Shown: in pieces, positions 4,588 through 55,802 of the stretch
Layout: the number at the start of each line of letters is the position of its first letter
Numbering within the stretch: position 1 is the first letter of the stretch
DNA from: Candidatus Micrarchaeota archaeon
GTDB taxonomy: Archaea; Micrarchaeota; Micrarchaeia; Anstonellales; Bilamarchaeaceae
Direction: 5' to 3'
Assembly (NCBI GenBank): GCA_043821365.1
Contig: JBDRCX010000002.1
Location: forward strand, 32,001 to 96,000
Length of the DNA stretch: 64,000 nt
The notes under the pieces: model-generated
What the model saw: the letters and a program-made list of their open reading frames with translations, nothing else
Told to the model about the DNA's origin: nothing
The model's database searches: none
Program-made: the position numbers and the translations under genes

Positions 4588-7413
4588 ATGTATGATCATA
4601 GGAAAGTAGAGAAAGAAGTATTGGAATTTTGGGAAAAAGAAAAAATATATGAAAAGGCAAAAGCCAAAAATAAAGGTAGTGAAACTTTTTATTTTTGCGA
4701 TGGCCCTCCTTATGCAACTGGTCAAATTCATCCCGGTACTGGATGGAATAAAACAATAAAAGATGCTGTTTGTCGCTATCATAGGATCATAGGAAAAGAT
4801 GTGAGAGTACAAGCTGGATACGATACTCATGGATTACCAATTGAAGTAAAAGTTGAACAAGAACTTAAGTTCAAACATAAAAGTGATATAGAAAAATACG
4901 GAATTGGTAAATTTGTTGATAGATGCAAAGAGTTTGCTACAAAATATATTGGAGTTATGGGCAACCAATTCAAATCCTTAGGGGTTTGGATGGATTTTGA
5001 TAATCCATATATTACCTACACAGACAGTTATATCGAATCCTCATGGAGAAACCTCCAATTAGCTAATGAAAGAAATCTTCTTCACGAAGGTGTCTATGTT
5101 CTCCCATACTGCTATAGATGTGAGACCACAATGGCCAACTATGAGTTGGAATACGCTGATGAATCTGATCCAAGTATTTTTGTGAAATTCAAACTTAAAA
5201 ACAAAGAAAATGAATATTTGATAGTTTGGACAACAACTCCATGGACATTAGTCTCAAACATGGGAGTTATGGTACATCCGACCTTTGCATATGTTCGCAT
5301 AAAAGTTGGCGAAGAAATATGGGTAATTGCAAAAGAAAGATTAGACTACCTTATGGAATTACTTGGAGAGAGTGCAACTGTTGTCGAGGAACTTCCTGGA
5401 AGAAAATTAAAAGATTTAGAATATGATCATCCATTTCAAGACAAAATACACAAACATGCAGATAGAAAAGTTGTTTTGAGTGATGAATTTGTTACTCTTG
5501 AAGAAGGTACTGGTTTAGTACACACTGCACCAGGACATGGTCCTGCGGATTTTATTATTGGTAAAAGATATGGTATAGAAATATTCTCACCTGTTGATGA
5601 AAAAGGTAATTATACTGATGATGCCGGTGTATTCCATAAGAAGAATGTTAGAGAATCTAATCCCCTGATTATAGATGTTCTTAAGGAAAAAAATGTTCTT
5701 GTTTACGAAGCACGAATAAAACATAGATATCCCCACTGTTGGAGATGCAAAACACCACTTATTTTCCTTACAACAAAACAATGGTTCATTACAATATCTA
5801 AGATCAAAGACCAAATGCTTAATGAGATTGAGAAAACCGAGTGGCATCCTTCATTTGCAAAAGACCGATTCAAGGAGTTTGTTTCAAATGCACCAGACTG
5901 GTGCATCTCTCGTCAAAGATATTGGGGCATTCCACTTCCAATTTGGAGGTGTGAATGTGGAAAGATAAAAGTTATTGGTTCAATGAAAGAAATCCCAAAA
6001 GTAAAGGAACTCCACCGGCCATATATTGACGAAATAGAGCTTGATTGCGAGTGCAGTAAAAAAATGAAAAGAGTTCCAGATGTTCTTGATGTTTGGTTTG
6101 ATTCTGGTAATGCAATTTGGGCGTCTTTAACACCTGAAGAAGCAAAAATTTATTCAGAAAGAGCAGATTTGATTATAGAGGGCCAGGACCAGATTAGAGG
6201 TTGGTTTTATTCTTTACTTGGTTCTGGTGTTGTTCGATATGGTGCATGCCCATACAAAAAATTGCTTATGCATGGCTTCTTTGTAGATGAAAAAGGAGAA
6301 AAAATGAGCAAATCATTAGGAAATTTCATTCCTTTGGAAGAAATTCTTGACAAATATGGTGCAGACAGCTTTAGGCTTTGGGGTATTAGCAACACAATAT
6401 GGGATGAACTTAAGTTTAGCTGGGAAGAAATGAAAAAAGCAACCAGCGATCTTAATATTGTTCTCAATATGGTTGTTTTCCTTGAGAGATTCCATCCAAA
6501 GAAAAAAATAGAAAAAGCAAAACTAACAAAAATAGATGAATGGGCCTTAAGCAGATTAAATTCAACTATTAGAGATTTCAGAGCATCATTTGAATCCTAT
6601 GAATTAAATCGAGCTTCAAAAATAATCAGGGCATTCATAGTCGATGACATTAGTAGATTCTACATGAAAATTGCCAAAGATAGGATTTCAAATGAAGAAA
6701 ACCACGAAGCTGCGTTATCTACTTTATACCACATAATGCTTGAATCATTGAAGATGATCAGCTGCCTAAGTCCAATGCTCAGTGAGCATCTTTATCAAAG
6801 ATTCTATAGGAAATTTGAGGATGAAGAATCAATTTTCCTTCTGCGTTTGTCTTCAGAAGATAGTGGAAAAATAAATCAATTATATGAAAAGCAGATGGAG
6901 ACGGTAAAGGAAGTTGTTTCTGTTGCTTTGTTGGCAAGACAGACTGCAGGGATAAAAGTGCGCTGGCCAATTCAAACACTTTACATTGAAACAAAATCCC
7001 ATGAAGTGAAAGATGCATCGGGTGCATTTACAGACATAATCCAAAGTCTGATCAATGTGAAAGAACTCAAGGTTGTAGAAGAAAAACCAAAAGCAGATCT
7101 TGCATCTCAAGAATTCACCAATGGTTCTGTTCATATCGACAAGAAAATAGGCGAAGAACTTTACGAAGAGGGTCTGTTGAATGAGGTTAAAAGAAGAGTT
7201 CAGATGCTTCGTAAAGAAGAAAAACTTGTTGAAAAAGATAAAATCACACTAACAATCAACACTGAGAATGAATTTGAAGCAATTCTTAAAAAACATAAAA
7301 AAGAACTCTCAGAAGCAGTTAATGCGTCTCATGTGCATTATTCAGTTGAATCAAAAATGAATGAGTATACTATAGACGGAAGATTAGTGAAAATAGTAAT
7401 AAAAAAGGATTAA
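4588..7413 (+). CDS. ileS: Isoleucyl-tRNA synthetase (archaeal type)
   Basis: DGPPYATG, WTTTPWTL, GTGLVHTAPGHG, WCISRQRYWG, KMSKS; ATG at 4588. Confidence 0.96.
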   Translation: MYDHRKVEKEVLEFWEKEKIYEKAKAKNKGSETFYFCDGPPYATGQIHPGTGWNKTIKDAVCRYHRIIGKDVRVQAGYDTHGLPIEVKVEQELKFKHKSDIEKYGIGKFVDRCKEFATKYIGVMGNQFKSLGVWMDFDNPYITYTDSYIESSWRNLQLANERNLLHEGVYVLPYCYRCETTMANYELEYADESDPSIFVKFKLKNKENEYLIVWTTTPWTLVSNMGVMVHPTFAYVRIKVGEEIWVIAKERLDYLMELLGESATVVEELPGRKLKDLEYDHPFQDKIHKHADRKVVLSDEFVTLEEGTGLVHTAPGHGPADFIIGKRYGIEIFSPVDEKGNYTDDAGVFHKKNVRESNPLIIDVLKEKNVLVYEARIKHRYPHCWRCKTPLIFLTTKQWFITISKIKDQMLNEIEKTEWHPSFAKDRFKEFVSNAPDWCISRQRYWGIPLPIWRCECGKIKVIGSMKEIPKVKELHRPYIDEIELDCECSKKMKRVPDVLDVWFDSGNAIWASLTPEEAKIYSERADLIIEGQDQIRGWFYSLLGSGVVRYGACPYKKLLMHGFFVDEKGEKMSKSLGNFIPLEEILDKYGADSFRLWGISNTIWDELKFSWEEMKKATSDLNIVLNMVVFLERFHPKKKIEKAKLTKIDEWALSRLNSTIRDFRASFESYELNRASKIIRAFIVDDISRFYMKIAKDRISNEENHEAALSTLYHIMLESLKMISCLSPMLSEHLYQRFYRKFEDEESIFLLRLSSEDSGKINQLYEKQMETVKEVVSVALLARQTAGIKVRWPIQTLYIETKSHEVKDASGAFTDIIQSLINVKELKVVEEKPKADLASQEFTNGSVHIDKKIGEELYEEGLLNEVKRRVQMLRKEEKLVEKDKITLTINTENEFEAILKKHKKELSEAVNASHVHYSVESKMNEYTIDGRLVKIVIKKD

Positions 7414-7415
7414 AT

Positions 7416-7892
7416 ATGAAAGCATTAGTTGTGTTTTATTCCAGGACAGGTACAACTAGGAAAGTTGCCAATTTAATCAAGAGTATTCTGAAATGTGATA
7501 GTGAAGAAATTCATGACATTACTAGTAGGAAAGGCATTGTCGGGTATATACTTGGAGGCAGAGATGCACTGTTCAAATTGTTTACTTCTATCAAAAATGT
7601 GAAAAAAAATCCATCTGATTATGATTTAGTAATTATAGGAACTCCAATTTGGTCTTTCACACTTACTCCTGCTATTCGTTCGTATATTAATGGCCATAAA
7701 TCCAGTTTCAAAAAAGTTGCATTTTTCTGTACCGAAGGAGATAGTGGCGGTCAAAATGCATTCAAAGAGATGGAAAAATTGTCTAAATTAAAACCCATAG
7801 CAACTCTAGAGCTTAAAGAAGATAGAATAAAAAAAGAAAAATACGAAAATCATGTCAAAAAATTCGTACAAACTCTCATTTCTTATTCTTGA
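7416..7892 (+). CDS. Flavodoxin-family protein
   Basis: VVFYSRTGTT FMN-binding loop, IGTPIW, VAFFCT. Confidence 0.85.
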   Translation: MKALVVFYSRTGTTRKVANLIKSILKCDSEEIHDITSRKGIVGYILGGRDALFKLFTSIKNVKKNPSDYDLVIIGTPIWSFTLTPAIRSYINGHKSSFKKVAFFCTEGDSGGQNAFKEMEKLSKLKPIATLELKEDRIKKEKYENHVKKFVQTLISYS

Positions 7893-7940
7893 ATTCAGTT
7901 CAGTATATTTATAAATAGTTGTGTGAATAAGTATATATCT

Positions 7941-9026
7941 ATGGTACATCGAACTGACTTCATCACTAATACTAGCCGTGCTTTAAATGATTATGCAAGT
8001 CGATCAGGTCTAAGGTTTAGGACTCCTATGCATGAAGGTTTAGAAAAATTTAGACGTCGTTTTGCTGATGCATTTGAAAAGATTGAAGAAAGACGTGATG
8101 GAGATTCAATCTATCAAAGTATGCTTCCTCTTCCTGATAGAAATGCAAAAATAACTACTGTAGAGGGAGATTCAGTTCATCTTTTAGTATCTAAGTTATT
8201 TCGTTCAAAAGACCAAGGTAGGTTAGGAGTTCTCATGTACCTGCTTAGAGAAGATAGTGTGAGAATATTCCTGATTTATCAAAGTCAAAGCCATTCAATG
8301 TGGAGAGTTGCACCTTCTGGTCATGAAGGTTGGTTTGGCAAGACAAACGATGAAAACCAGCTTAATCTTCCATGGACTTTTCAACGTATTTTGGACAGCC
8401 ACGCCTTAGATAGTCAAACTCGTCCAGAGTTAATCCATCCAAATCTTTTCAATTATCTTATTCTTCAACCAGCACTTTATGCCTTTTATGATGAAATGTG
8501 CAAAACAGTTCTTTTGGGGGTTGATGATCTAGAAACAACTCCTGTTCAATCAGGTGCAGCAATTGACATAAGAAGAGGAACTGTTAGCGATGTTCTTGAG
8601 TGGCCCACCCAAGGTTGTATCAAAAGAGCATGCTTTGATTCTTTAGATAGGGAAATCAGATATCATTTTGTTGTTTCGCCATATGGTTTTGGTATGTCAT
8701 CTGCAGAAGAACGTGTTTCTTTTAATAAATATGGTCTTCGTCCAATGCCAAAATCAATACTTCCACTTGTACGTCCATTTACTGATTATTATGAACAAAT
8801 AGATTATGCATTTGCTCCAGTTAATAGTCATTATGCATTACGGGATCCTGTTCGTATTTTAGCTGATCTTGCTCAAAAAATTGATGGCATCCAAATAGTT
8901 CCAAAAGAAGTGCTTCATTTTCTAAACTCTCTAAGAAAAGCTCTGATGGGTGAATGTGTAGATCTACCAAAAATAGATGAAAAAATATCTGCAAGATGGA
9001 GCGAAGCAGTTAGTTTGCACTCTTAA
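7941..9026 (+). CDS. Hypothetical protein
   Basis: Long ORF; ATG at 7941 lies 32 nt after TTATAAAT (7909). Confidence 0.65.
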   Translation: MVHRTDFITNTSRALNDYASRSGLRFRTPMHEGLEKFRRRFADAFEKIEERRDGDSIYQSMLPLPDRNAKITTVEGDSVHLLVSKLFRSKDQGRLGVLMYLLREDSVRIFLIYQSQSHSMWRVAPSGHEGWFGKTNDENQLNLPWTFQRILDSHALDSQTRPELIHPNLFNYLILQPALYAFYDEMCKTVLLGVDDLETTPVQSGAAIDIRRGTVSDVLEWPTQGCIKRACFDSLDREIRYHFVVSPYGFGMSSAEERVSFNKYGLRPMPKSILPLVRPFTDYYEQIDYAFAPVNSHYALRDPVRILADLAQKIDGIQIVPKEVLHFLNSLRKALMGECVDLPKIDEKISARWSEAVSLHS

Positions 9027-9198
9027 ATCTGCTTCTTTTGCTTATACTACTCCAACATCCTTTGCAAATGTATCTATGATCTATCTTCTTTCTTTTTTGA
9101 CTTTTTATGCATCCATTGCAAATATTTCTGTTACAGTAGTCGCATTCTTGAAGTTTGGCTGTTTGTAAGCCGCATCTTCCACATGTTTCAATAGCCAT
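9010..9198 (-). CDS. Small Cys-rich zinc-finger protein
   Basis: Four CxxC pairs (CGRC, CDYC, CNGC, CKGC) in about 62 aa. Confidence 0.7.
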   Translation of the reverse strand: MAIETCGRCGLQTAKLQECDYCNRNICNGCIKSQKRKKIDHRYICKGCWSSISKRSRFKSAN

Positions 9199-9278
9199 TA
9201 ATTTCACTCTCTTAAGAAAATTTGTAAGAAAACTTAATATGGAAACCTATTTAATAGGTATTCTGGCAATGTTTTTCC

Positions 9279-9773
9279 ATGAAAGGGCAGTCTGGGGTGG
9301 AATACCTAACAACTTACGGATGGGCAATTTTTGTATTGCTTTTAATCATAGGGATAATCGTTTCAAGTGGTGTTTTAACTCCTAATTATCTTATTTCAGA
9401 GGAGTGTACATTTGGAAACAATCTTAAATGCAATTTCCTACTCACAAATTCTCCTTCAACTGGACAAAGTGAAATGAAAATCCAATTATTCAATGGTTTC
9501 CCCTACAAGGTTACAATAGATAAAATTGAACTTGAAACAGAAGACGGAGCCCAACAGTTTAGTGGATTTTTACCTGCTAATGTTAATATCTCCAGTGGAG
9601 ATTCAGAAATTTTCACTGGAATCTTGATTGATGCTCCAGTTCCAGAAGGTATGACAAAAAGGTTTAAGGGCAATATAACTTACTATTCTTGCGCACCTGA
9701 ACTTGGTCCTGTTTGTAGTAATGTTTCTCATGTAATAACTGGAAGGATTGCTGCACGGGTTACTCCACAGTAA
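9279..9773 (+). CDS. Class III signal peptide (archaeal type IV pilin-like) protein
   Basis: MKGQ/SGVEYLTTYGWAIFVLLLIIGII: basic-G-Q cleavage site, Glu at +5, hydrophobic helix. Confidence 0.85.
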   Translation: MKGQSGVEYLTTYGWAIFVLLLIIGIIVSSGVLTPNYLISEECTFGNNLKCNFLLTNSPSTGQSEMKIQLFNGFPYKVTIDKIELETEDGAQQFSGFLPANVNISSGDSEIFTGILIDAPVPEGMTKRFKGNITYYSCAPELGPVCSNVSHVITGRIAARVTPQ

Positions 9774-12075
9774 CAGTAAGTTCTCCTTTTGTTGTTTCTA
9801 TTTTCTTTATTTTGCTGATTTTAGCAAGTTCGTCTAATAGTTCCTTGTCCATTTCTTCTGGTGTTGATAATCTTACTAATTCAAGTTCAGCATTTTGTGG
9901 AAGCTTGTTTTTTGATTTATATTGTCTTAATTGACTAACTACTTCGCTTAAAACCTCAACTTCTTCAACATCTTTTTTATATTCTTCTCCTGCTTCTGGC
10001 CATTTTTGGCTTGTTACATTTTCTTTGAATAAATTAGTGTAAATTTCTTCTGTTATGTGTGGTGTGAATGGTGACATTAGTTTCAGAGATTCCATAATCA
10101 CTTTTCTTAAAGTGTAGAATGATGCATTTCTTGTTGGTCCTTCTGTGTAAACTCTGTGCTTTACATACTCAAGATAATTATCACAGAACTCCTGCCAGAA
10201 AAATCTTTGTATCTTGTTCATTGCATAGTGATACTCGAAATTTTCAAGGTGTTCGGTACATTCTTTGATTAATGTGTTTAGTTTACCTATAATCCATTTG
10301 TCAACCATTGTCAGTTCTGGCTGTTCTTTTATCTCTTCTTTTACAACTGTCTCATAAAACCTTGCTGCATTCCAAATTTTACTTAGGAAACTTTTTGCAT
10401 ATTTTATGTCTTCAAAACTAAATGGTCTGTCTTTTGCCATTGCTCCGCTTAATGCAGCCCACTGCCTTATTGCATCAGTTGGATAGTCTTTGAGTAGGTC
10501 TGTTGGTGAAATTATATTACCCAAAGACTTACTCATCTTTTTTCCATCTGGTGCCAAAACATTTCCGTTTAATAGGATTGTTTCAAATGGAGGAATTCCA
10601 GTTAATGCTCCACTTCTATAAATTGTATAAAACGCCCATGTTCTCACTATTTCTACTCCCTGTGGACGTAATGAAACAGGATAGAACTTTTTCATTTTTT
10701 CCTTATCTGGCCATCCTGCAACTATCAAAGGACTTATGCTTGAGTCTACCCAACAATCGCATGTGCTTGTCTCTGCTTTCATTATCTTTCCGCATTCGCA
10801 TTTTTTTTCAGCTGCTTTTTCTGGATAGAATGGCAAATCTTCTGCTGGTGCTGTTTTTCCACATTCACATCCATAAAATGGCAATGGAGTACCAAAAACC
10901 CGTTGTCTTGAAATAACCCAGTCCCATTCTGCACCTTCTACCCAATCAATTAAATATGAAATTCCAAACTCAGGCACCCATTTTATCTTATGGGCCATTT
11001 CCTTGATTGTTTTTGCAGGTGTTCTTATGTCTGCAAACCATTGAAGGGATGGAATCAATTCAACTGCTGTTTTACATCTATCATGGACTTTTACTGTTTG
11101 TTTTAGGCTTTGTTTTTTGACAATTTTTCCTTGTGCTTCTAGTTCTTCAGTTATCTTTTTCTTTGCTTCAGCTATTTTCAATCCATCTAATGAATCAGAA
11201 TTGATCATTTTACCATACTGATTTATTGCTTGGTATAATGGAAGTTTGTGCCTGTGCATCCAGACAACATCCATTTTATCACCGAAAGTACAAACCATTA
11301 CCAATCCAGAACCAAATTCCTTGTCAACATCTTTATCTGGTAAAATTGGTACTTCTTTTCCTAATGGGGTTTTTATCTTCCCTGTTAATCCTTTGTATCT
11401 TTCATCTTCTGGATTGTAAAGAACTGCTTCGCAAGCATGTAATAGTTCTGGTCTTGTTGTTGCAATTATGTGTTCTTTATTGTCTTGAGTAAATTTGAGG
11501 TGGATCATATTCCCGTCTTTTTCTTCATCATCTAATTCTGCTTTTGCAATTGCAGAAACACATTTTGGACACCAATAAACAGGGTATTTATCTCTGTAAA
11601 CTAGCTTATTTTTGTACATTTCAATTAGTGAAATTTGGACTTTTTTATGATAATCAGGATCCATTGTTCTGTATTCATATCTCCAGTCTGGGCTGAAACC
11701 CATCTGAGTCATTTGTGTTTTCATTTTTGCTATCATTTCTTTTGTCCATTCAACGCATTTTTCTCTAAATTGTGGCGGTGGAAGTCGTCCATGTTTTTTT
11801 TCTACTTTTACTTCTGTTGGGAATCCTTGTGTGTCCCATCCTTGTGGATAATAGACGTTGAATCCTTTCATTCTTTTGTATCTTGCTGCAAAGTCAAAGT
11901 AGCTGTAGGAAAGAACATGGCCCATGTGCAATTCGCCAGATGTGAATGGTGGTGGGGTGTCTATTGAATAGATTTTTTTAGTGGCGTTATTTTCATCGAA
12001 ATTGTATGTTTTGTTCTCTTCCCAGTATTTCTGCCATTTTTCTTCTATTTTTTGATCAAATCTTTGTTGAAGCAT
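9760..12075 (-). CDS. valS: Valyl-tRNA synthetase (archaeal type)
   Basis: DTPPPFTSGELHMGH, ATTRPE, DWVISRQR, KMSKS. Confidence 0.95.
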   Translation of the reverse strand: MLQQRFDQKIEEKWQKYWEENKTYNFDENNATKKIYSIDTPPPFTSGELHMGHVLSYSYFDFAARYKRMKGFNVYYPQGWDTQGFPTEVKVEKKHGRLPPPQFREKCVEWTKEMIAKMKTQMTQMGFSPDWRYEYRTMDPDYHKKVQISLIEMYKNKLVYRDKYPVYWCPKCVSAIAKAELDDEEKDGNMIHLKFTQDNKEHIIATTRPELLHACEAVLYNPEDERYKGLTGKIKTPLGKEVPILPDKDVDKEFGSGLVMVCTFGDKMDVVWMHRHKLPLYQAINQYGKMINSDSLDGLKIAEAKKKITEELEAQGKIVKKQSLKQTVKVHDRCKTAVELIPSLQWFADIRTPAKTIKEMAHKIKWVPEFGISYLIDWVEGAEWDWVISRQRVFGTPLPFYGCECGKTAPAEDLPFYPEKAAEKKCECGKIMKAETSTCDCWVDSSISPLIVAGWPDKEKMKKFYPVSLRPQGVEIVRTWAFYTIYRSGALTGIPPFETILLNGNVLAPDGKKMSKSLGNIISPTDLLKDYPTDAIRQWAALSGAMAKDRPFSFEDIKYAKSFLSKIWNAARFYETVVKEEIKEQPELTMVDKWIIGKLNTLIKECTEHLENFEYHYAMNKIQRFFWQEFCDNYLEYVKHRVYTEGPTRNASFYTLRKVIMESLKLMSPFTPHITEEIYTNLFKENVTSQKWPEAGEEYKKDVEEVEVLSEVVSQLRQYKSKNKLPQNAELELVRLSTPEEMDKELLDELAKISKIKKIETTKGELTVTVE

Positions 12076-12176
12076 AGTAATACCTGCTAAATGTGGTGTT
12101 TACCTATACAAAAATGACGCAGTCTCCTTATAAATACGTGTTACGTCTGTTAAAATTAAGTAAAATAAAAATTAAA

Positions 12177-13115
12177 CTATGCAATCATTGTTCTTTTTGG
12201 AACAACTAGGTTTAGGTTGCCTGAATGGAGTTCTGTGACTGCACCTATGTGTCCGTCCAATGTAGATAAAACATCATCCATCTTATTTGTTCTAAGTGCT
12301 TCTTCAGCTGCTCTTATTGTGTTTGGTCCAAGTGATAGTAGTTTTGCAAGTTTTTCTCTTTCGAGCCTTCTTTCATCTTCACCTTTTTGTTCACTGATTA
12401 ATTTTGTAAGTGATTCTTTTGCTCTTTCTCTTGCATCAAGTGCTAAAAGTCTCATTGTTGGATTTGTTGAACTTTCTTCTCCACTTTGTGTTATCCCTAA
12501 TTGTTTTGCAGCTTCTGATACATCAGCAAGACCAAATCCCAATTGTAATGCCGCTCTAAGTCCGTCTTCTTGTTCTTGTTTACTTCGTCCTTCAAGGTAT
12601 TTAGCCACAAAAGTTGCTTTTGGTTGTCCATTTGCATAAGTTCCCCCATATGACGCTAGTTCGGCTGCAGTTTCCCCTCCTGTTGCCATGACTCCATTTG
12701 ATTCAGGCGTTCCTAGGGGGTGTGATTGTCCATACTCTACTGAATCATCAAGATTTTGTACTAGAAATACTTGCCTAAGTTCTCTAAATGTAGTTTCTGT
12801 TGCAACTACTGTAAGAGGAAAACTAAAACCGCTGAATCTAGCGAAATTGTTTTCAGCAATCGAAGCTACTACTGCTTGGTCTTGTTCCATCATCTTCGCT
12901 TGAATATCTTGGGTTATCCCGAGTGTTGGCGGTGTTTCCTGAAGGATTACTGGTAATCGTTCTTTGAATTTTCTTCTACTAACTTCAAAAAGGTCTACTG
13001 AGGCTTTTATATCTATTGGGGCTTCTGTTCTAATCGGTTGTTGTGCTGGTGTTTGTAATACAGGAGCAATTGGTGCATCTGTTTTATCCGGTTCAGTTAT
13101 TCTTGGAGCTGCCAT
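12177..13115 (-). CDS. Hypothetical protein
   Basis: 312-aa ORF, helical composition, no recognised motif. Confidence 0.65.
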   Translation of the reverse strand: MAAPRITEPDKTDAPIAPVLQTPAQQPIRTEAPIDIKASVDLFEVSRRKFKERLPVILQETPPTLGITQDIQAKMMEQDQAVVASIAENNFARFSGFSFPLTVVATETTFRELRQVFLVQNLDDSVEYGQSHPLGTPESNGVMATGGETAAELASYGGTYANGQPKATFVAKYLEGRSKQEQEDGLRAALQLGFGLADVSEAAKQLGITQSGEESSTNPTMRLLALDARERAKESLTKLISEQKGEDERRLEREKLAKLLSLGPNTIRAAEEALRTNKMDDVLSTLDGHIGAVTELHSGNLNLVVPKRTMIA

Positions 13116-40397: not shown

Positions 40398-41444
40398 CTA
40401 ACGCAAAACCAACTTTAGCTTGTTTATTGCATTTGTCATGGTCTCTTCTGGTTGGTTTAGGCATATTCTGATGAAATTATCAATGCCAAATTCACTACCT
40501 GGTGCAACAACCACACCATTCTCCAATGCCATTTCAAGGAATTTATCAGAATTCTTAATATTGGGGTGCGTTGCGAATATGTAAATTCCACCATCTGGTT
40601 TTACGAATTCAAACCCTGCTCTCTGTAAAAGTGTTTGTGTTGTTTGCGATCTTGTTTCCCATATTTGTTTGTTTCTTTCGAGTATCTCATTTTCGTTTTC
40701 TAGGCATGCAATTCCAGCTTTTTGAGCAAATGGTGGGACACATGTTATTGTTATCTGATTGAATCTTGTGATTTTTTCAACTACTTCTTTTGGTGCAATT
40801 GCATATCCTATCCTCCAGCCTTCCATATTGAATTCTTTTGAGAACGATCTCAATCGTATTGCATTTTCATATATTGGAATTTCTTTGAATGCAAGCCCTT
40901 TGTATGCCTCGTCAATAATGACAATTGCTCCGACTTTGTTTGCTTTATTTATTGTCTCTTGAATAAGAGTATTATCATATTCTGTGCTAGTTGGATTAAG
41001 TGGATTACAGATAATCAAAACATCATCCTTAGTGAGTTTTGGAATTAGGAAAGACCACATATTCTTCATTGATGTCTCTATTGTTTTGAATTCTAAACCA
41101 AGTTGTTTACAGATTAATCTATAAGCTGGCCAGTATGGTTTTGGTGTAATGACTTGTTTTTTTCCCAATACTGAAAGAAGTGCAAACAAAAGTGCCTTTG
41201 ATCCTGGTCCAACAACTACATTTTCTCTTTTGCATTTTTCCCGTTCTGCTATCTTATCTCTGAATTCATTTGTTCCAGCTGATGACACATACTGTGCTTT
41301 TGCCTTTTTCATGCTTTCAATTGCTGCGTTAGTTGCACATTCTGGGGTTGGTAAATTTGTATCTCCAATGTTTAGGCGAATGATCTTTTTCCCTGCTTTT
41401 TCCATTGCAAGAGCCTTTTCAGCAAGTTCATAGAATCCAACCAT
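40398..41444 (-). CDS. PLP-dependent class I/II aminotransferase (probable aromatic aminotransferase)
   Basis: LNIGD, NPLNP, DEAY, SFSKEFNMEGWRIGY; last gene of the aro operon. Confidence 0.85.
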   Translation of the reverse strand: MVGFYELAEKALAMEKAGKKIIRLNIGDTNLPTPECATNAAIESMKKAKAQYVSSAGTNEFRDKIAEREKCKRENVVVGPGSKALLFALLSVLGKKQVITPKPYWPAYRLICKQLGLEFKTIETSMKNMWSFLIPKLTKDDVLIICNPLNPTSTEYDNTLIQETINKANKVGAIVIIDEAYKGLAFKEIPIYENAIRLRSFSKEFNMEGWRIGYAIAPKEVVEKITRFNQITITCVPPFAQKAGIACLENENEILERNKQIWETRSQTTQTLLQRAGFEFVKPDGGIYIFATHPNIKNSDKFLEMALENGVVVAPGSEFGIDNFIRICLNQPEETMTNAINKLKLVLR

Positions 41445-44271: not shown

Positions 44272-45503
44272 GCTCTCAACCTCTTCAAGTCTTCAAAAAA
44301 TTTAGGGTAGGATTTTGATACGCATTCGTGGTTTTTTATTTCAACACCAGTTTCAGAGTTTAGTGCTGCTATTGCTCCTGCCATTGCGATCCTATGGTCC
44401 CCGTGGGAATCGATGATCCCACCTTTTAGCTTCCCACCTACTATTTCCATTCTATCATCAATAATCTTTATGTTGGCTCCAATTTTTGTAAACTCATCTA
44501 GAAGTGCGGTTGCTCTATTGCTTTCTTTGTGCAATAATCTGCCAACACCGCTAATAACACTTTTACCTTTACAATTGCATGCTAATGCAACAAGTGGTGG
44601 AAATAGATCTGGTGAATTTGTTGCATCAAATTCAAATGCTTGGAGTTCTGATCTTGAAACAGAAACTGAATTTTTACTTAATTTAATATTTGCCCATGTC
44701 TTCACTAAAACTGACAATATCTCTTGGTCAGGTTGATCACTATCTGTTAATTCTTCTAATCCTACTTCGCCTGCAATTGCCCCTGCAACAAGCATAAAAG
44801 CTGCCCCAGACCAATCACCTTCAATTGTTATCTCTCTGCCTTTGTAAGCTTGGTTCCCATCAACTTCAAGCATTGTCATTCCTTCATCTAATCTGACACT
44901 ACCACCAAACGAAGAAACAACTGATTTAGTCATTGTTACATATGATTTACTTTTCAAATTTACTATCTTGACTACAGAATCATTTCTACACATTGGCAAT
45001 GCAATTAACAATCCACTTACAAATTGCGAACTTACACTACCGTCTACTGTTATTTCTCCGCCTTTTATCGGTCCTTTTACTGTTATTGGTGGTTTTTTGT
45101 TGTTAGTGCTAACCTCTGCGCCCATATCCCTTAATGGTTTTTCTATCATATCAACTGGTCTGTTTAGCAAAGAACTCTTTCCAGTTATTGATATTTTTTT
45201 ATTGAAGAGAGCTGCAATTGGTGTGAACATCCTCATGCAAAACCCTGATTCATTGCAATTTAATGTATCTGATACTGGTCCATTCTCACTACCGATTATT
45301 TCAACAAAGTCATTGTTGACAACTACTCTTGCACCTAATGCTTTTACTATTTCAATTGCTGCAAGTGAATCATCACAAAAAGAAGGATTTGCTATTGTTG
45401 ATGTGCCTTTAGCTAATGCTGCTATTGCAACAGCGCGTTGCATCATGCTTTTTGATGGTGGTGCTTTTATTTTACCAGCAACACTACCAGGCGTTATCTT
45501 CAT
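44268..45503 (-). CDS. aroA: EPSP synthase
   Basis: PPSKS, NESG, SSQFVSG, KESNR, DHRIAM, KSYPKFF. Confidence 0.95.
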   Translation of the reverse strand: MKITPGSVAGKIKAPPSKSMMQRAVAIAALAKGTSTIANPSFCDDSLAAIEIVKALGARVVVNNDFVEIIGSENGPVSDTLNCNESGFCMRMFTPIAALFNKKISITGKSSLLNRPVDMIEKPLRDMGAEVSTNNKKPPITVKGPIKGGEITVDGSVSSQFVSGLLIALPMCRNDSVVKIVNLKSKSYVTMTKSVVSSFGGSVRLDEGMTMLEVDGNQAYKGREITIEGDWSGAAFMLVAGAIAGEVGLEELTDSDQPDQEILSVLVKTWANIKLSKNSVSVSRSELQAFEFDATNSPDLFPPLVALACNCKGKSVISGVGRLLHKESNRATALLDEFTKIGANIKIIDDRMEIVGGKLKGGIIDSHGDHRIAMAGAIAALNSETGVEIKNHECVSKSYPKFFEDLKRLRA

Positions 45504-46767
45504 TTAGAATCCTCTCGGTTATTTGTTTTGGTATTCTGCCATCAGTTATTATTATGGCATCAGCTGTTTTTGCGTAAAGTGCCTTTCTTTTTTCAAGTAT
45601 CTGCTTTATTACTTCGCTGCGTTCATCAACATTAAGCAATGGTCTTTCCTTTCCCTGAACTCGTTTTTCTATTGTCTCAGGTGTTGCCCACAACCAAAAA
45701 ACAACTGCATTCTGTTTGATTATTTCTATGTTTTCTTGGTTCAGTACAACGCCGCCTCCACATGCAACTATTTTGTCTTTTATGTTGGCTAATTTTCTGA
45801 TCTGTGCTATTTCCATCTCTCTGAACTTGTCTTCTCCGTACTCCTGAAATATTGCACTTATCTTTTGTTCGTGCTGTGTTTCTATCTCATGATCACTATC
45901 AAAGATTCCTTTTCCTGTTCTCTCTGCCAATTCTATTGCGTTGGCTGTTTTTCCACTTCCCATCATTCCTACAAGTGCAATGTTAGTTGGTTTTGTTGTC
46001 TTCTGATCAATTACTGTTCTTATCATTTCAAAAGGTACTTTCCTCCCTGTGAATAATTCGAATACTTTTACTCCATGGTGGGCAAGCCATTCCTTTCCAT
46101 CTATTGTTTTACAGCCAACCTCTTTTCCATCTTTAATTAGTTGTGTTTCTTTCGCATAATTGGCATCAATAATTATCATTTCTTTTTTCAAAAGTTCTTT
46201 TGGTACAACTCTTTCATATGTGCTCAATGCAGAAATTAGAATGCAATTAGGTTCTAATTGTTTTTCTAATTCAGAAAGAGGAGAATATTCACATCCAAAT
46301 ATGTTTGCAATTTCCTTTGCTTTTTCAACAGTTCTGTTTACAACTGTGACTTTCATTCCTAAAGAAACAACTGCTGCAATGGCTGCTTTTGCAGCACCCC
46401 CTGCACCAAGCACAACTATCCTCTTATTATCAGTATCTTCTGCAGATAAAATTCCCACAACTCCGTCCACGTCTGTATTCATTCCAATTGTCTTTTCATT
46501 ATCAAACAATATTGTGTTCACCGCACCAAGTTTTTTTGCAACTGGATCAAGTTCGACTATTTTGGCCATTTCCTCTTTGAAAGGAGTTGTTATATTCAGT
46601 GCTTTGATTCCAATGGCCTTTGCAGTTTCAAGAGCTTCTTCAGCATTTTCTGCAGCTAAGCGTGTATAAACTGCATCAACTCCAAGTTCCTGAAACACAG
46701 AGTTCATCATCTGCGGGCTTCTACTATGTAATATTGGTTTTCCAACAACAGCAAAAATATCAGTCAT
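45484..46767 (-). CDS. aroE: Shikimate dehydrogenase fused to P-loop shikimate kinase (AroE-AroK)
   Basis: From MTDIFAVVGKPILHSRSP; NITTPFKE, NTD, GAGGAA; then GMMGSGKT, FREME, CGGGVV, RPLL. Confidence 0.9.
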   Translation of the reverse strand: MTDIFAVVGKPILHSRSPQMMNSVFQELGVDAVYTRLAAENAEEALETAKAIGIKALNITTPFKEEMAKIVELDPVAKKLGAVNTILFDNEKTIGMNTDVDGVVGILSAEDTDNKRIVVLGAGGAAKAAIAAVVSLGMKVTVVNRTVEKAKEIANIFGCEYSPLSELEKQLEPNCILISALSTYERVVPKELLKKEMIIIDANYAKETQLIKDGKEVGCKTIDGKEWLAHHGVKVFELFTGRKVPFEMIRTVIDQKTTKPTNIALVGMMGSGKTANAIELAERTGKGIFDSDHEIETQHEQKISAIFQEYGEDKFREMEIAQIRKLANIKDKIVACGGGVVLNQENIEIIKQNAVVFWLWATPETIEKRVQGKERPLLNVDERSEVIKQILEKRKALYAKTADAIIITDGRIPKQITERILNEDNAW

Positions 46768-47402
46768 TCTATCCCTAATTTCCCAAGAATCTCTTGGATT
46801 TCTGATTTTGTCATCTGCCCTTCTGCAGTTTCTTTTCCTTTTTCCAAACATGCAAATGTAAATGGGCTTCCTAAAATCGGTGCAACTATTCTTGTTATTT
46901 TTCCTTTCCCTCCCATCCCTATGACTATTATTTTTTTCTCACTATCTATCAACCCCAAAAGCCTTGCATTGTCTCTATTGGTATTCACCAAACAAGCTAT
47001 TTTTGCAATGTCTGCACCTGATTGAAAGCACCAATTCACTATTTGAGATAGTTCTGCTTCTGAAGGTGTTTTTTTGTAGTCATGGTAGGAAACTATAACT
47101 TTGCAATTTTTTGCCTTTGCCATATTTATGATTTCTTTTTTGTATTCATCACTAGCATCAACTTCAATATCAACAAAAGAAGCCCCGAAATTTATTGCGT
47201 TCAATAATATCCTCTTTCTTTCAGCGTCAGTGAGATTTTCAGGTCTGCATGTTGCAATTAGTTTTATTTTTTGTGAAAAAATCTCCTTTATGGTCTGACT
47301 GTCATTTGGAGTCTTGTCTAGTCTTATTTCTGCTAATTCAAGACCTTGGAGCACATTTATGCATTTTTCCAAATCAGGTTCAGCAATACTAACACAAATC
47401 AT
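46764..47402 (-). CDS. aroD: 3-dehydroquinate dehydratase type I
   Basis: AEIRLD, IATCR, VDIE, SYHDY, IAKIA, IGMG. Confidence 0.88.
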   Translation of the reverse strand: MICVSIAEPDLEKCINVLQGLELAEIRLDKTPNDSQTIKEIFSQKIKLIATCRPENLTDAERKRILLNAINFGASFVDIEVDASDEYKKEIINMAKAKNCKVIVSYHDYKKTPSEAELSQIVNWCFQSGADIAKIACLVNTNRDNARLLGLIDSEKKIIVIGMGGKGKITRIVAPILGSPFTFACLEKGKETAEGQMTKSEIQEILGKLGIE

Positions 47403-48414
47403 TCACAACACCTTCCAATTCTTCGATGCTGATCTCATCTATTTTACATCTACCTATCCCCTGAAGTAATGCCATCCTTATCTTATTACCGAATTTTTTC
47501 TTGTCTTTTTTGATGGCATCAATGAGTTTTTCTTTATTATCAGTTTTTGTTGGTAACCTGTATTGTCTAATCAAATTTTCTATTCTTTCTGCATCTTTTT
47601 TCTCTAATAATCCTTTTTGTAAAGATAAATTTGTTGCTGCTACCATGCCAATTGCTACTGCTTCGCCGTGCGGTATCTTTGTTGTTTTTTCAATTGCATG
47701 CCCAATGGTATGGCCAAAATTTAGTTTCATCCGTTCTCCTTTTTCTAATTCATCTTTTTTTACAATACTTAGTTTGACATTGATAGAATCATGGACTATT
47801 TTTTCTATTGTTGTTCTGTGGAGAGAAAGTGCCTTCTCATTATTTGTTTCCAAATATGAGAACAATGAAGAATCACCAATTGCTGCTTGTTTGATGACTT
47901 CTGCAAAACCACATCGCAATTCAATCAATGGCAATGTCTTCAGAACGTCGAAATCACATATGCAAAAATTTGGTTGGTTGATCACACCAACTAGGTTTTT
48001 GTAACCCTCGAGGTTCACTCCATTTTTTCCTCCAATACTGGCATCAACTTGCGCAAGAAGGGTTGTTGGAACAAAACCAAATTGTATTCCCCTCAAATAT
48101 GTTGATGCAACAAAACCAGTAACATCACAAACAATGCCCCCCCCAACACCAACTAATAATGAAGATCTGTCAATCTCACTGTCAAGTAATTTTTTGTAGA
48201 CTTTTTTTACTGTTTCAAGTGTTTTGTTTTCTTCACCTGGATTAATCTCAATAACCTCAAACCCATCCAACTTATCTGCATGAAATCTCCTGACATTGCT
48301 ATCTGTTATAATGGTGGTTTTTCTTTCTTCACAGTGGCTTCTGAGGTTTTCTATCGAATCCCCAAGTATTATCTGGCATTTTCCTCTCATACCATCAAGT
48401 TCAATTACTCTCAT
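47389..48414 (-). CDS. aroB: 3-dehydroquinate synthase
   Basis: [45 protein letters not shown]. Confidence 0.95.
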
Positions 48415-49229
48415 TTAAGCTCCCCCATCTTTTCTTTAAGCTGCCTAACCTTCTTAGCCATATCTGTAAATTGGGGCGGTGTCAATGCCTGGTCCTTATC
48501 ACTCAATGCTTCTGGAGGGTTTCTGTGTACCTCTACTATTATTCCATCTGCACCACATGCAACTGATGCCAGACTCATTGGTTCTATCAGACTGATCCTT
48601 CCTGTTCCATGAGTTGGATCAGTAATTACTGGGAGGTGAGTTAATTCTTTTACTGCCGGTACTGAGCTTAGATCAAGCGTGTTTCTTGTGTAAGTTTCGA
48701 ATGTTCTTATTCCACGTTCACATAGAATGACATCTGGATTTCCATCATTGAGTATGTACTCAGCACAGTTCAACCATTCCTCAATAGTAGAGTACATTCC
48801 TCTTTTGAGCAGGATTGGTTTGTTTGCTCGGCCAACTTCCTTTAACAAAGAGAAATTCTGCATATTTCTTGCTCCAATCTGTAGAACATCTGCGTATTCA
48901 CAAACCCAGGAAACATCTCGTGTGTCAATGACTTCAGTTACAATTGGCAAGCCAGTTTCATCCCTTGCTTTTTCAAGTATTTTCAATCCCTTGAGACCAA
49001 GACCCTGGAAAGCATAAGGTGAAGTTCTTGGTTTGAATGCCCCTCCTCGGAGCATATCTGCTCCTGCTTCTTTCACTGCTCTTGCAGTTTCAAGTGTTTG
49101 TTCTTCACTTTCAACACTACACGGGCCTGCAATTATTGTAAATCCCTGTCCAACCTTTACATTTCCAATGCGGACAACTGTTCTTCCGCTTCCATTTAAT
49201 CCAGCTAATTTTATATTTTTCATAATCAT
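48411..49229 (-). CDS. aroF: DAHP synthase type I-beta, no regulatory domain
   Basis: [42 protein letters not shown]; start among 49238/49229/49223. Confidence 0.93.
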
Positions 49230-49250
49230 ATACCTCATTCAATCAAAATC

Positions 49251-49409
49251 AACTCGCCAACGTCGAGTTCATCAAATAAAAATCAATACCTCTAATCATC
49301 ATAAGCATCAGGAAAACCCCATTAATATAATTTGTTTAGTGGTTCTCCTGATATCGATAGCTAAAGCTGAAATAATAGAAGAAGTTTTTCCAATTGTTTT
49401 CAGCTATCG
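49251..49409 (-). promoter_or_regulatory. Attenuator-like RNA structures in the aro operon leader
   Basis: 49398-49409 pairs with 49355-49372; 49341-49352 pairs with 49307-49318 (12 bp); hairpin 49251-49269 just before the RBS. Confidence 0.6.
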
Positions 49410-49422
49410 TCATGTGAACCAT
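49336..49422 (-). CDS. Aromatic-rich leader peptide MVHMTIAENNWKNFFYYFSFSYRYQENH
   Basis: 28 aa; 1 Trp, 4 Phe, 4 Tyr within residues 11-24; directly upstream of DAHP synthase; alternative start 49413. Confidence 0.75.
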   Translation of the reverse strand: MVHMTIAENNWKNFFYYFSFSYRYQENH

Positions 49423-49468
49423 CAATTTTATATGTTCATTAAATTTCTGATATCTTTTATTTATATAG

Positions 49469-50269
49469 CTATGTATCATCTTTCTCCCTCAGAACTTTTG
49501 TTATTTTCTTAGTGAATTCTGCAATTTCATCACATGCTTTATCTACGTCATCTAGATGATTTGAATAAATATCTACTAATTTACTGCCAATAATTATACC
49601 ATCTGCATCTGAATTTGAAAATATTCTGGCTTGTTTTTCATCTGATATTCCAAATCCTGCAACTATTGGTGTTTTTGTGATTTTTTTTGCCTGCTTTATT
49701 AGTTCAATTGCTTCTGATGATACTGTGTCTCGCATTCCAGTGGTTCCAAGAACTGATACTGCATATAAAAAACCAGCAGACTTTTCAGCAATTTTTTTCA
49801 TGCGATTTTCTGGTGTGTTTGGCGTAATGAAATATATCAAGGCAATTCCATTTTTTTTACATAAATTATCTAGTTCTTCTGACTCATCAATAGTAATATC
49901 AGGCACTATAAGTCCATCTGCCCCTGCTTCTTTTATTTCATTTACGAAGTTTTCAATTCCGTTTGAGTAAACTATGTTGTAATAGGTCATTACCATAATT
50001 GGTACATTGATTTTCATTTCACGTAATTTTGAAATAATATCAAGTGCTTTTTTCGGTGTCATTCCATTAGTTAGTGCTCTGTTTGATGCAGTTTGTATGA
50101 GTTTTCCGTCAGCAATTGGATCAGAAAAAGGAATGCCAAGTTCTATTGCTCCTGCTCCGTTTGCAACGAGTGTTTGAATAATTCTTATTGTGAACTCTTC
50201 TGATGGATCACCGCAGCATACATAAGGCATGAACACAGTTTCATTTTGGAATAAATTATCTAACGTCAT
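49469..50269 (-). CDS. trpA: Tryptophan synthase alpha chain
   Basis: [30 protein letters not shown]. Confidence 0.96.
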
Positions 50270-53755: not shown

Positions 53756-55164
53756 AATCTCACCTCCAGTGCTTGCATAAGTGAGCGCATTTTGTTTTCA
53801 GTTTCATGGTATTCCTTTTCAGGAATTGAATCATACACTATTCCGGCTCCAGCCTGGACATATGCGTTTTGTCGTTGTGCTATCAATGTCCTTATGGTAA
53901 TTGCAAAATCACAATTTCTATTAAATGAAAAATATCCAACAGCCCCACCATAAGCACCTCTTCTATTTTTTTCAAGTTCTTCAATTATTTCCATTGCACG
54001 GACTTTTGGTGCTCCACTCAATGTTCCTGCAGGAAAAATTCCATCAAAAACATCAAAACAGTCTTTTTTATCAGCCAATTCACCACAGACATGGGAACTT
54101 AAATGCTGGACATGACGATACTTATGAACTTCCATAAGTTCTGGAACTGATACTGAACCAGGAGCAGAAACCTTTCCAAGATCATTTCTTGTAAGATCAA
54201 CAAGCATAAGATGTTCTGCCCTTTCTTTTTCATCATTGATAAGTTTTTGTTCAAATATTTTGTCTTCTTCTATTGTTTTTCCCCTTGGCATTGTACCAGC
54301 CAAAGTTGCATAGCTGTCAATTTTCTTTCCTTCAACTCTTACTAAATTTTCTGGACTGGATCCAATTATTTTTCTATCCCCAAAATTAAGGCAGTACATA
54401 TATGGAGAAGGATTTGTTTGTTTTAGATAATTATAAAACCTAAGCAAATTCCCTTCATATGGCAAGGTGTATCTTCTTGATAAGACAACTTGGAATATAT
54501 CGCCTTCAACTATTCTTTCTTTTGCAGTTTCAACTGCCTTTTCAAATTCATCCTTTTCCATATTTGATTTTGGATTACCAGCTTCAAATGGCCCTGAAAA
54601 AACATCTTCTTTTGAAAGCGAAAGAATCTCTGCTGATCTATCATCTCCATGACTCAGGTAGTGCACTGTTCTATCTCTCTGATCATAAATAATACAATCA
54701 TCAAAAATACCAAATTCAAAATCAGGGAATTTCAAATCATCTTTTGTTTTTTCCGGAAGCTTCTCTATGTTTCTGATATAGTCATAGGCAAAATATCCAA
54801 CAGCTCCACCAGCGAAACCTTCTTTTTCTATGTTTATTTTCGGAATGTTATCTGCAAGTGTTCGTATTGGTTTTTGCGAATCAATTTCTTCGTCACCAAC
54901 AGTTACAACTTTTTCTTTTGCAGTTATCATCTTTTTTGGATTAAAACCAATAAAAGAAAATCTTGCAAGCTTTTCCTTTTCACTGGATTGACTATCTGTG
55001 GCATTTGAAGAAGCTTGCATCTCCTTTGTATCAATAGACTCAAGCAGAAATGTTTCTCTGTACTGTCTGTTTATCAGCAAATATAGCTGGTATGGGTTGA
55101 GAGTAATTTTTAGTTTTTTATATATCAATTTACACACCTTTTTGTTTGACTCAAACTTACTCAT
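53752..55164 (-). CDS. trpE: Anthranilate synthase component I
   Basis: [42 protein letters not shown]. Confidence 0.96.
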
Positions 55165-55190: not shown

Positions 55191-55244
55191 TCAACGTATA
55201 GATTCATGAGTCAAGGTCCATCTTGCTAATGTTATCATTGTCAT
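55191..55244 (-). CDS. Trp-containing leader peptide MTMITLARWTLTHESIR
   Basis: 17 aa, single UGG; ATG 29 nt after TTTAAATA; stop lies 27 nt before trpE. Confidence 0.65.
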   Translation of the reverse strand: MTMITLARWTLTHESIR

Positions 55245-55265
55245 CTATAATTAGCACCAATGATA

Positions 55266-55273
55266 TATTTAAA
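55266..55273. promoter_or_regulatory. TATA box apparently shared by the divergent trp-leader and trpY promoters
   Basis: TTTAAA core at 55268-55273; 29 nt to the leader ATG (minus) and 31 nt to the trpY ATG (plus). Confidence 0.55.
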
Positions 55274-55280
55274 GCTTTTA

Positions 55281-55296
55281 TGTACAAAAATATACA
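55281..55296. promoter_or_regulatory. TRP boxes TGTACA-N4-TATACA
   Basis: Match the TGTACA consensus described for TrpY in Methanothermobacter; located between the TATA box and the trpY start. Confidence 0.75.
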
Positions 55297-55298
55297 TT

Positions 55299-55802
55299 AT
55301 GTATCCTATTCTAGAAGATGCGTTTTTACGCTATCCAATGCGCAAAAAGGTGGCCGAGCTTTTGCTAAAATATGGCCTTAGAGTGGACAAAAAAGCTGTA
55401 ATTTACTGTGGTGAAATAGAACTCAGTCCAGCAAAAATTGCAAGATCACTTAGGGTTGATCGTAGGGTTGTCATCGAAACAGCACAAATGATCGCAGAAG
55501 TAGAAGAACTGTCAAACATTTTTGAGGATTTAATTCCAAAAGCATTTATTAGTGGAGTAGCAAAACATCTTGGATTTGAAGTTCTTGAAATAGAATCAAA
55601 ACCTCATGCTGTTGGTATTGTAAGTGCAGTTACCAGGATAATCGCAGATGCCCGAATAAGTATCCGACAAGTAGTAACTGACGATCCTGACATTTATCCA
55701 AATCCAAAATTAACAATAATTCTTGAGAAAAAACTTTCTGGTTCAGCATTGATAAAATTAAGAGAACTAAAATACATAAAGAAAATATCTCTGGAGTCAT
55801 GA
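55299..55802 (+). CDS. trpY: TrpY-type tryptophan-responsive regulator (HTH plus ACT)
   Basis: From MYPILE (55299); YP.R..VA..LL..G.R(V/I)D...IYC, VDRR.V, GISIRQ-like, DP.....P.LTII pattern of the TrpY family; divergent from trpE. Confidence 0.82.
   Translation: MYPILEDAFLRYPMRKKVAELLLKYGLRVDKKAVIYCGEIELSPAKIARSLRVDRRVVIETAQMIAEVEELSNIFEDLIPKAFISGVAKHLGFEVLEIESKPHAVGIVSAVTRIIADARISIRQVVTDDPDIYPNPKLTIILEKKLSGSALIKLRELKYIKKISLES

Follow-up and report, generated by a model that had tools for sequence, protein, structure and literature searches.

Leader-peptide attenuation is textbook regulation by coupled transcription and translation. In the enterobacterial systems pheL-pheA and trpL-trpEDCBA one RNA fold results when the leader is untranslated or the ribosome stands at the stop codon, and the other fold results when the ribosome is stalled. 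In tnaC-tnaA and in mgtL-mgtA of Salmonella the translation of the leader ORF sets the access of a termination factor, which is Rho, to unstructured RNA beside the stop codon. Archaea likewise couple transcription and translation, and their termination proceeds without hairpins. To our knowledge leader-peptide attenuation has been established in bacteria only; full-text literature searches brought up no description of an archaeal attenuator of this kind, which is no proof of absence.

Among characterised systems the closest is aroR-aroF of Corynebacterium glutamicum (Neshat et al. 2014, summarised in PMC11802643). There, a short ORF with Phe and Tyr codons immediately precedes the DAHP synthase gene, and ribosome stalling at these codons raises the transcription of the operon, with a classical attenuator at the end. 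The leader analysed here resembles aroR in being an aromatic-codon ORF directly before a DAHP synthase gene. It differs from that system by its archaeal host (with TBP, TFB and aCPSF1), by 5-9 aromatic codons that usually include Trp and by having no conserved hairpin-plus-U terminator (one is found in 4 of 44 leaders). That a conserved and frame-constrained aromatic leader is embedded in a covarying two-state RNA before archaeal aromatic operons is well supported by the comparison of related sequences given below, and this leader very probably represents a ribosome-based amino-acid sensor, i.e. a kind of regulator established so far only in bacteria.

The locus and its host

The window, i.e. 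the whole stretch of 64,000 nucleotides that was analysed, belongs to a genome of 1.2 Mb (87% complete, 36% GC) from an uncultured organism. The closest aroF proteins in a database comparison come from Candidatus Micrarchaeota and Bilamarchaeum assemblies, and the DNA of the window occurs in groundwater and biofilm metagenomes. The source genome encodes TBP, TFB (on the window's own contig) and an aCPSF1/FttA orthologue that scores 817 bits and lies over the curated cut-off. Because these genes are present, the leader's host is an archaeon with archaeal transcription machinery, as the earlier note on this DNA had claimed.

The window contains two operons for aromatic amino acids on the minus strand. 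The stop codon of trpA at 49469 is followed by a gap of 230 nt, after which the DAHP synthase starts at 49223 or 49238.

55164 to 49469, minus strand: trpE-G-D-C-B-A (Pfam)
49236-49232, minus strand: Shine-Dalgarno sequence GAGGU of aroF (sequence)
48411..49223, minus strand: aroF, DAHP synthase type I-beta, which opens the aro/phe/tyr operon (Pfam DAHP_synth_1, 2.5e-81)

The database gene call of aroF comprises 270 aa. Past the gap the gene order according to Pfam is aroF, aroB, aroD, an aroE-aroK fusion, aroA, aroC, pheA, tyrA and an aminotransferase, with the end at 40398; an AAA ATPase gene flanks the aro operon. The fusion gene (45484-46851, minus strand) combines shikimate dehydrogenase with a shikimate kinase of bacterial type (SKI family), here in an archaeal genome. 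The six trp genes of the window showed no trpF (PRA isomerase) domain. Another uORF of 17 codons, MTMITLARWTLTHESIR, with a single Trp codon (55191-55244, minus strand) is preceded by a TTTAAATA box carrying a TGTACA motif and followed by the start of trpE at 55164. Divergent from trpE, a 180-aa ORF on the plus strand (55260-55802) matches no Pfam family at a threshold of 0.001 and gives only a faint ACT match (E = 0.007); the Pfam scan by itself gives no support to its reading as a TrpY-like regulator.

The leader reading frame and its promoter

The earlier note had placed in the gap the sequence TATATAAA and an ORF with nine aromatic residues in a stretch of 14. Both elements are found there on the minus strand.

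49460..49467, minus strand: TATA-like promoter box TATATAAA (sequence and relatives)
49422-49336, minus strand: leader ORF including an upstream in-frame ATG, reads MVHMTIAENNWKNFFYYFSFSYRYQENH (sequence)
49336..49413, minus strand: leader ORF from the conserved start, MTIAENNWKNFFYYFSFSYRYQENH plus stop (sequence and relatives)
49351..49392, minus strand: regulatory codon run W8, F11, F12, Y13, Y14, F15, F17, Y19, Y21 (frame-specific aromatic enrichment in relatives)
49338-49336, minus strand: leader stop codon (sequence)

A TTTAWAWA box (at least 7 of 8 positions) precedes the leader ATG by a median of 46 nt, and in 25 of 37 relatives the distance is 40-52 nt. This conserved TATA-like box suggests that the leader has its own promoter, and the implied 5' UTR would measure about 20-25 nt. 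The conserved start of the ORF among the relatives compared is the second ATG at 49413, and the ATG at 49422 would add MVH, so that the reading frame in the window comprises 25-28 codons. A Shine-Dalgarno-like segment of the GUGGU type is located 5-6 nt 5' of the leader ATG. In this genome, the Shine-Dalgarno consensus of which is AGGTGA(T), GTGGT is over-represented before starts (30 versus 8); the anti-Shine-Dalgarno was derived from motif enrichment upstream of starts, with the 16S gene assembled as a 5' fragment only. ORFs with nine aromatic residues in 14 are not rare here (32 of 10,164 short ATG ORFs genome-wide); therefore it is the fold and the conservation of the leader that go beyond chance, and not its aromatic richness.

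The comparison drew on 190 aroF loci gathered from related genomes, metagenomes and GTDB genomes. An aromatic-rich uORF occupies the same position in nearly every Micrarchaeota-type aroF locus, and a search with the leader profile yielded about 46 distinct homologous sequences. The alignment comprises 39 sequences with a median pairwise identity of 57% (28 clusters at 80%). According to the leader covariance model, 35 of the 151 genomes from this order contain the element (13 of 45 genera), each with exactly one copy.

The aligned leaders have 20-31 codons with 5-9 aromatic residues each, and their frame is open in 39 of 39, whereas the remaining two frames are open in 14 and 0. Some segments, above all the G-F-F-S-F-S-Y codons, show nucleotide-level conservation that extends to third codon positions. 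In the variable part, which is unconserved at this level, aromatic codons make up 36% in frame 0 versus 2.5% and 9.6% in the other frames, and this enrichment is the strongest evidence for selection on codons and not on RNA alone. The length and the N-terminal half of the peptide vary freely, whereas the aromatic content, the RNA pairing and the FFSFSY motif are kept; more distant leaders have the aromatic codons in common but not the sequence. Of the three amino acids that had been proposed to be sensed, Phe and Tyr stand with codons in 39 of 39 leaders, and Trp stands in part with a codon in 28 and none in 11. Two leaders (L008, L020) carry an in-frame insert of about 45 nt within the ORF, with extra local hairpins (GGAAGC..GCUUCC) and an aromatic run split in two. 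A scan of the genome for other amino-acid leaders, i.e. small ORFs before genes in which a single amino acid is enriched, returned no convincing candidate.

RNA structure of the leader

For the leader RNA (49437-49300) the folding energy is -35.9 kcal/mol compared with -18.9 for shuffled sequences (z = -5.4). Its segments are the following:

49416..49422, minus strand: C0, directly 5' of the start codon, AUGGUUC here (pairing with inner B)
49398..49409, minus strand: 5' arm of helix P1, codons 2-5, CGAUAGCUGAAA (RNAalifold and pair counts)
49355..49372, minus strand: 3' arm of P1, codons F-S-F-S-Y-R, UUUCAGCU and AGCUAUCG (RNAalifold and pair counts)
49339..49352, minus strand: B, the 5' arm of helix P2, last five codons (RNAalifold and pair counts)
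49321..49338, minus strand: P2 loop including the stop codon, A/U-rich in the window
49305..49320, minus strand: C, the U-rich 3' arm of P2, GGGGUUUUCCUGAUGC, 14-29 nt past the stop (pair counts)

Both helices that had been noticed in this single sequence, P1 between 49409-49398 and 49372-49355 and P2 across the stop codon, were confirmed as conserved and covarying. In the family as a whole P1 joins codons 2-6 to the codons F-F-S-F-S-Y-R. The arms of P1 enclose aromatic codons (z = -3.2 for the arm duplex), and in the outer part of this helix (P1a) every pair covaries, one of them for instance being GC in 13, CG in 12, AU in 7 and UA in 2 leaders. In P2, where AUCAGGAGAACC (49352-49341) pairs with GGUUUUCCUGAU (49318-49307), 11 of 14 pairs changed on both sides, 89% of the cells are paired and the B:C duplex has a z-score of -5.2. 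For P1 and P2 together 86% of the cells pair, as against 38-51% with the partners slid, and none of 500 shuffles reaches the observed values, though these shuffle statistics overstate independence as the aligned leaders are relatives. The inspection of related genomes that the earlier note had proposed thus shows aromatic-rich uORFs conserved before aroF together with compensatory changes in the helices.

P2 has a competitor in a third pairing. The segment C0, which is GUGGUU in most relatives and resembles a weak Shine-Dalgarno sequence, duplicates the inner portion of C and is able to pair with B. In the C0:B helix 87% of the cells are paired (duplex z-score -2.35), and the minimum-energy fold of several relatives prefers C0:B to P2. 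The pairings that exclude each other, C0:B and B:C, overlap the leader ORF. In those variant leaders that have an altered B (L226, L126, L134, L117 and L017) both C0 and C are altered to match, and such three-way co-variation of B, C0 and C is as predicted for a two-state switch. The equilibrium energies amount to about -20 kcal/mol for P2 and about -9 for C0:B; because P2 beats C0:B at equilibrium, the closed fold would matter only kinetically.

The region downstream of P2

Three further elements lie between P2 and the start of aroF:

49282..49304, minus strand: conserved downstream block, ..UGAUGAUUAGAGGUAUUGAU (..UGAC..UAGAG..AUUGAU; alignment)
49278..49282, minus strand: T5 tract downstream of P2 (a T run of at least 5 occurs there in 2 of 39 leaders only)
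49241..49269, minus strand: hairpin AACUCG..CGAGUU (49269-49251) with the U-rich tail GAUUUUGAUU (flagged by a terminator scan)

The earlier note had described the AACUCG/CGAGUU hairpin with its U tract before the aroF Shine-Dalgarno sequence. It is present and flagged as terminator-like, but it is specific for this lineage, being an insertion in the leader of the window (L001) that is missing from all aligned relatives. Likewise the proposed trpL/pheL-like layout with hairpin plus U does not hold for the family, since a conserved terminator of the bacterial type is missing: such a structure occurs in 4 of 44 Micrarchaeota-type leaders versus 30 of 43 bacterial ones.

U-rich sequences are found elsewhere in the leaders. 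The P2 loop of the relatives is on average 68% pyrimidine, and a T run of at least 5 follows directly after the leader stop in 25 of 39, whereas the loop of the window is without one; C carries T4-5 in 34 of 39 leaders. Throughout the genome of the window (G000) T runs of at least 5 peak in the first 10 nt past stop codons (7.7% coverage versus about 1% inside ORFs), as is expected for archaeal terminators, whereas A runs show no peak after stop codons.

In the conserved downstream block the UAG is nearly invariant, and the block is retained where the downstream gene is an Asp kinase gene. Among the aligned relatives it shows no significant complementarity to any other leader segment and no fixed reading frame. 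The Rfam search (gathering and permissive thresholds) yielded no T-box, Phe_leader, Trp_leader or credible family, the gap giving only snoRNA-type matches with E of at least 0.14, which is chance level. A C/D-box sRNA after P2 (UGAUGA-like and CUGA-like boxes, weak sR3/SNORD matches) was considered and rejected as the D box is unconserved in relatives. A second uORF from an AUG inside the 3' arm of P2 was also set aside as unconserved: it has 2-25 codons, its stop varies and it overlaps the aroF start in few loci.

Association with aromatic pathways

Most copies of the leader precede aroF, and many loci have no trp operon upstream. In one genome (G150, leader L227; G150:C5:97000-109300, minus strand, about 5900-12300) the leader is followed by genes for Asp kinase, ASA dehydrogenase, a DeoC-family aldolase, a methyltransferase, DHQ synthase II, an unknown protein and TrpA. 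This leader-led operon corresponds to the archaeal ADH route to dehydroquinate, and DAHP synthase is absent at that position. In G151 the leader is found 5' of an Asp kinase gene and in G124 5' of a gene for a divergent DAHP synthase. In G036 (L224 / L228, G036:C44) most of the operon is gone and only the genes for EPSP synthase and then for the AAA ATPase known from the flank of the operon in the window follow the leader; the RNA pairing is still recognisable there, and no ATG is in frame with the aromatic codons. This locus has the appearance of a natural loss of both the operon and its sensor. Hence the tie to the aromatic operon that had been noticed at this one locus extends to the relatives, in which the element travels with aromatic-pathway operons. 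As the first genes differ between the loci, the leader would appear to regulate aromatic biosynthesis as such and not to be tied to the aroF sequence.

Homologues of aroF with 72-80% identity occur in Syntrophorhabdaceae, Desulfobacterales, Ignavibacteriota/Bacteroidota/Chlorobiota, Aminicenantes and Spirochaetota. Many of these bacterial loci (L153, L076, L138, L148, L176, L174, L164, L079 and others) have their own aromatic-rich leader ORFs, e.g. ..YFSRFYGWWFYFY.. or ..RYYFFYYPRARDRALS... They share with the Micrarchaeota the gene family and the position of the uORF but differ in that they have classical attenuator folds with a canonical GC-rich hairpin and U run (in the 30 of 43 mentioned above), and nhmmer detected no homology of their leader sequences to the Micrarchaeota leader. 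A quick aroF tree is a near-polytomy and gives no direction of the transfer of aroF between archaea and bacteria.

Proposed mechanism and alternative readings

With moderate confidence we read the leader as a leader-peptide attenuator in the functional sense, i.e. one that is read by the ribosome, with P2 as the ON state and the free loop plus C as the OFF state acting through premature termination. The promoter directly after trpA would start an mRNA the first ORF of which has 25 codons, 9 of them for Phe, Tyr or Trp. In the closed fold C0 would pair with B and P1 would zip up the ORF, so that the leader start is occluded and C is left free; in the open fold B would pair with C to give the strong hairpin P2. 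A ribosome stalled for want of charged tRNA at W8 or F11-F15 would keep P1 and C0:B apart and leave B free, and P2 could form while C is being transcribed. A ribosome at the stop codon, which is located inside B or immediately behind it, would cover B as judged from the usual footprint, and C would emerge unpaired. If the leader is untranslated, C0 would sequester B, P1 would close and C would again stay unpaired. Thus P2 would form only with a stalled ribosome.

The assignment of P2 to the ON state follows from the analogy with the trp logic. The three states outlined above fit those of pheL-pheA and trpL-trpEDCBA, with C0:B corresponding to the pairing 1:2 and B:C to 2:3. In contrast with these, the archaeal leader is without segment 4 and hence without a 3:4 terminator hairpin, and its OFF fold would expose a U/pyrimidine-rich single strand. 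The OFF state would then be premature termination, either of the archaeal U-tract type or dependent on aCPSF1/FttA, in the untranslated RNA ahead of the first enzyme gene. Loop and C together would represent naked U/pyrimidine-rich RNA, recognised either intrinsically or by aCPSF1/FttA, and P2 would largely hide it. This arrangement recalls tnaC-tnaA and mgtL-mgtA, with the difference that the candidate factor, by presumed involvement, is archaeal aCPSF1/FttA and not Rho.

We favour archaeal U-tract or factor-dependent termination as the read-out because T runs after stop codons peak genome-wide, because 25 of 39 leaders possess such a run and 34 of 39 have T4-5 in C and because the indications for sequestration of the ribosome binding site are weak. 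Several observations count against this model. The P2 loop of the window itself has no U tract, its sole T5 being located downstream of P2. A U tract in the loop stays single-stranded in P2, and the hiding of a terminator would therefore be incomplete. Stalling at the two final aromatic codons would place the ribosome over B and so have the opposite effect. The conserved downstream block has no explained role, and 11 of 39 leaders have no Trp codon.

The same sensor could act on translation instead, if the freed loop and C paired with the purine-rich ribosome binding site of the first gene and P2 set this site free. We regard this read-out as unlikely, though it has some points in its favour: the aroF initiation region has a predicted accessibility of 0.45 with a ribosome at the leader stop and 0.50 with a stalled one (Wilcoxon p = 0.0045, related sequences), and the minimum-energy fold of leaders of the L016 group pairs C with the aroF start. 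Nevertheless the difference in accessibility is small, and the pairing of C with the initiation region does not surpass that of shuffled C. Moreover, one leader type serves unrelated starts (aroF, Asp kinase, EPSP synthase), and since P2 always wins at equilibrium the C0 mimic would be without a role in such a scheme.

It is very improbable that the RNA alone is the sensor, binding either uncharged tRNA in the manner of a T-box or a metabolite, with the ORF being incidental. The nucleotide-level conservation described above, which includes third codon positions and is most evident in the G-F-F-S-F-S-Y codons, would suit such a sensor, and the occurrence of ACCA in B and of UGGU in C and C0, which we take to be the pairing that T-boxes make with the 3' end of tRNA, provides a lead only. 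However, no Rfam family matches, T-box included. The frame-specific enrichment and an ORF that stays open in 39 of 39 leaders despite many indels are unexpected for a non-coding sensor, and distant leaders keep the aromatic codons and not the sequence.

Likewise very improbable is a functional aromatic micropeptide or a mere trp/aro intergenic promoter and terminator without sensing. In favour of these readings, the FFSFSY motif is conserved and AT-rich genomes have many aromatic-rich small ORFs by chance. Against them, the peptide is free to vary in length and in its N-terminal half while aromatic content and RNA pairing are kept, and many loci have no upstream trp operon. The leader also accompanies aromatic operons whose first genes differ, and in G036 it has decayed along with the operon.

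Significance for the Archaea

If the attenuation by termination outlined above applies, then this family might be, as we suggest tentatively, the first ribosome-mediated transcription attenuator of the Archaea, rebuilt for termination that is independent of hairpins: P2 would hide the U-rich RNA, the C0 mimic would make OFF the default and the same module would serve the DAHP and the ADH routes. The family bears on the question of how Archaea, which are without hairpin terminators, could use the logic of attenuation. With its switch between C0:B and B:C and about 46 natural variants, it offers a concrete design for how the archaeal transcription machinery might read the position of the ribosome, and the natural decayed control as well as the use before two different aromatic pathways add to its value. 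DPANN archaea are usually seen as host-dependent; here such an organism has its own synthesis of aromatic amino acids together with a predicted tight regulation.
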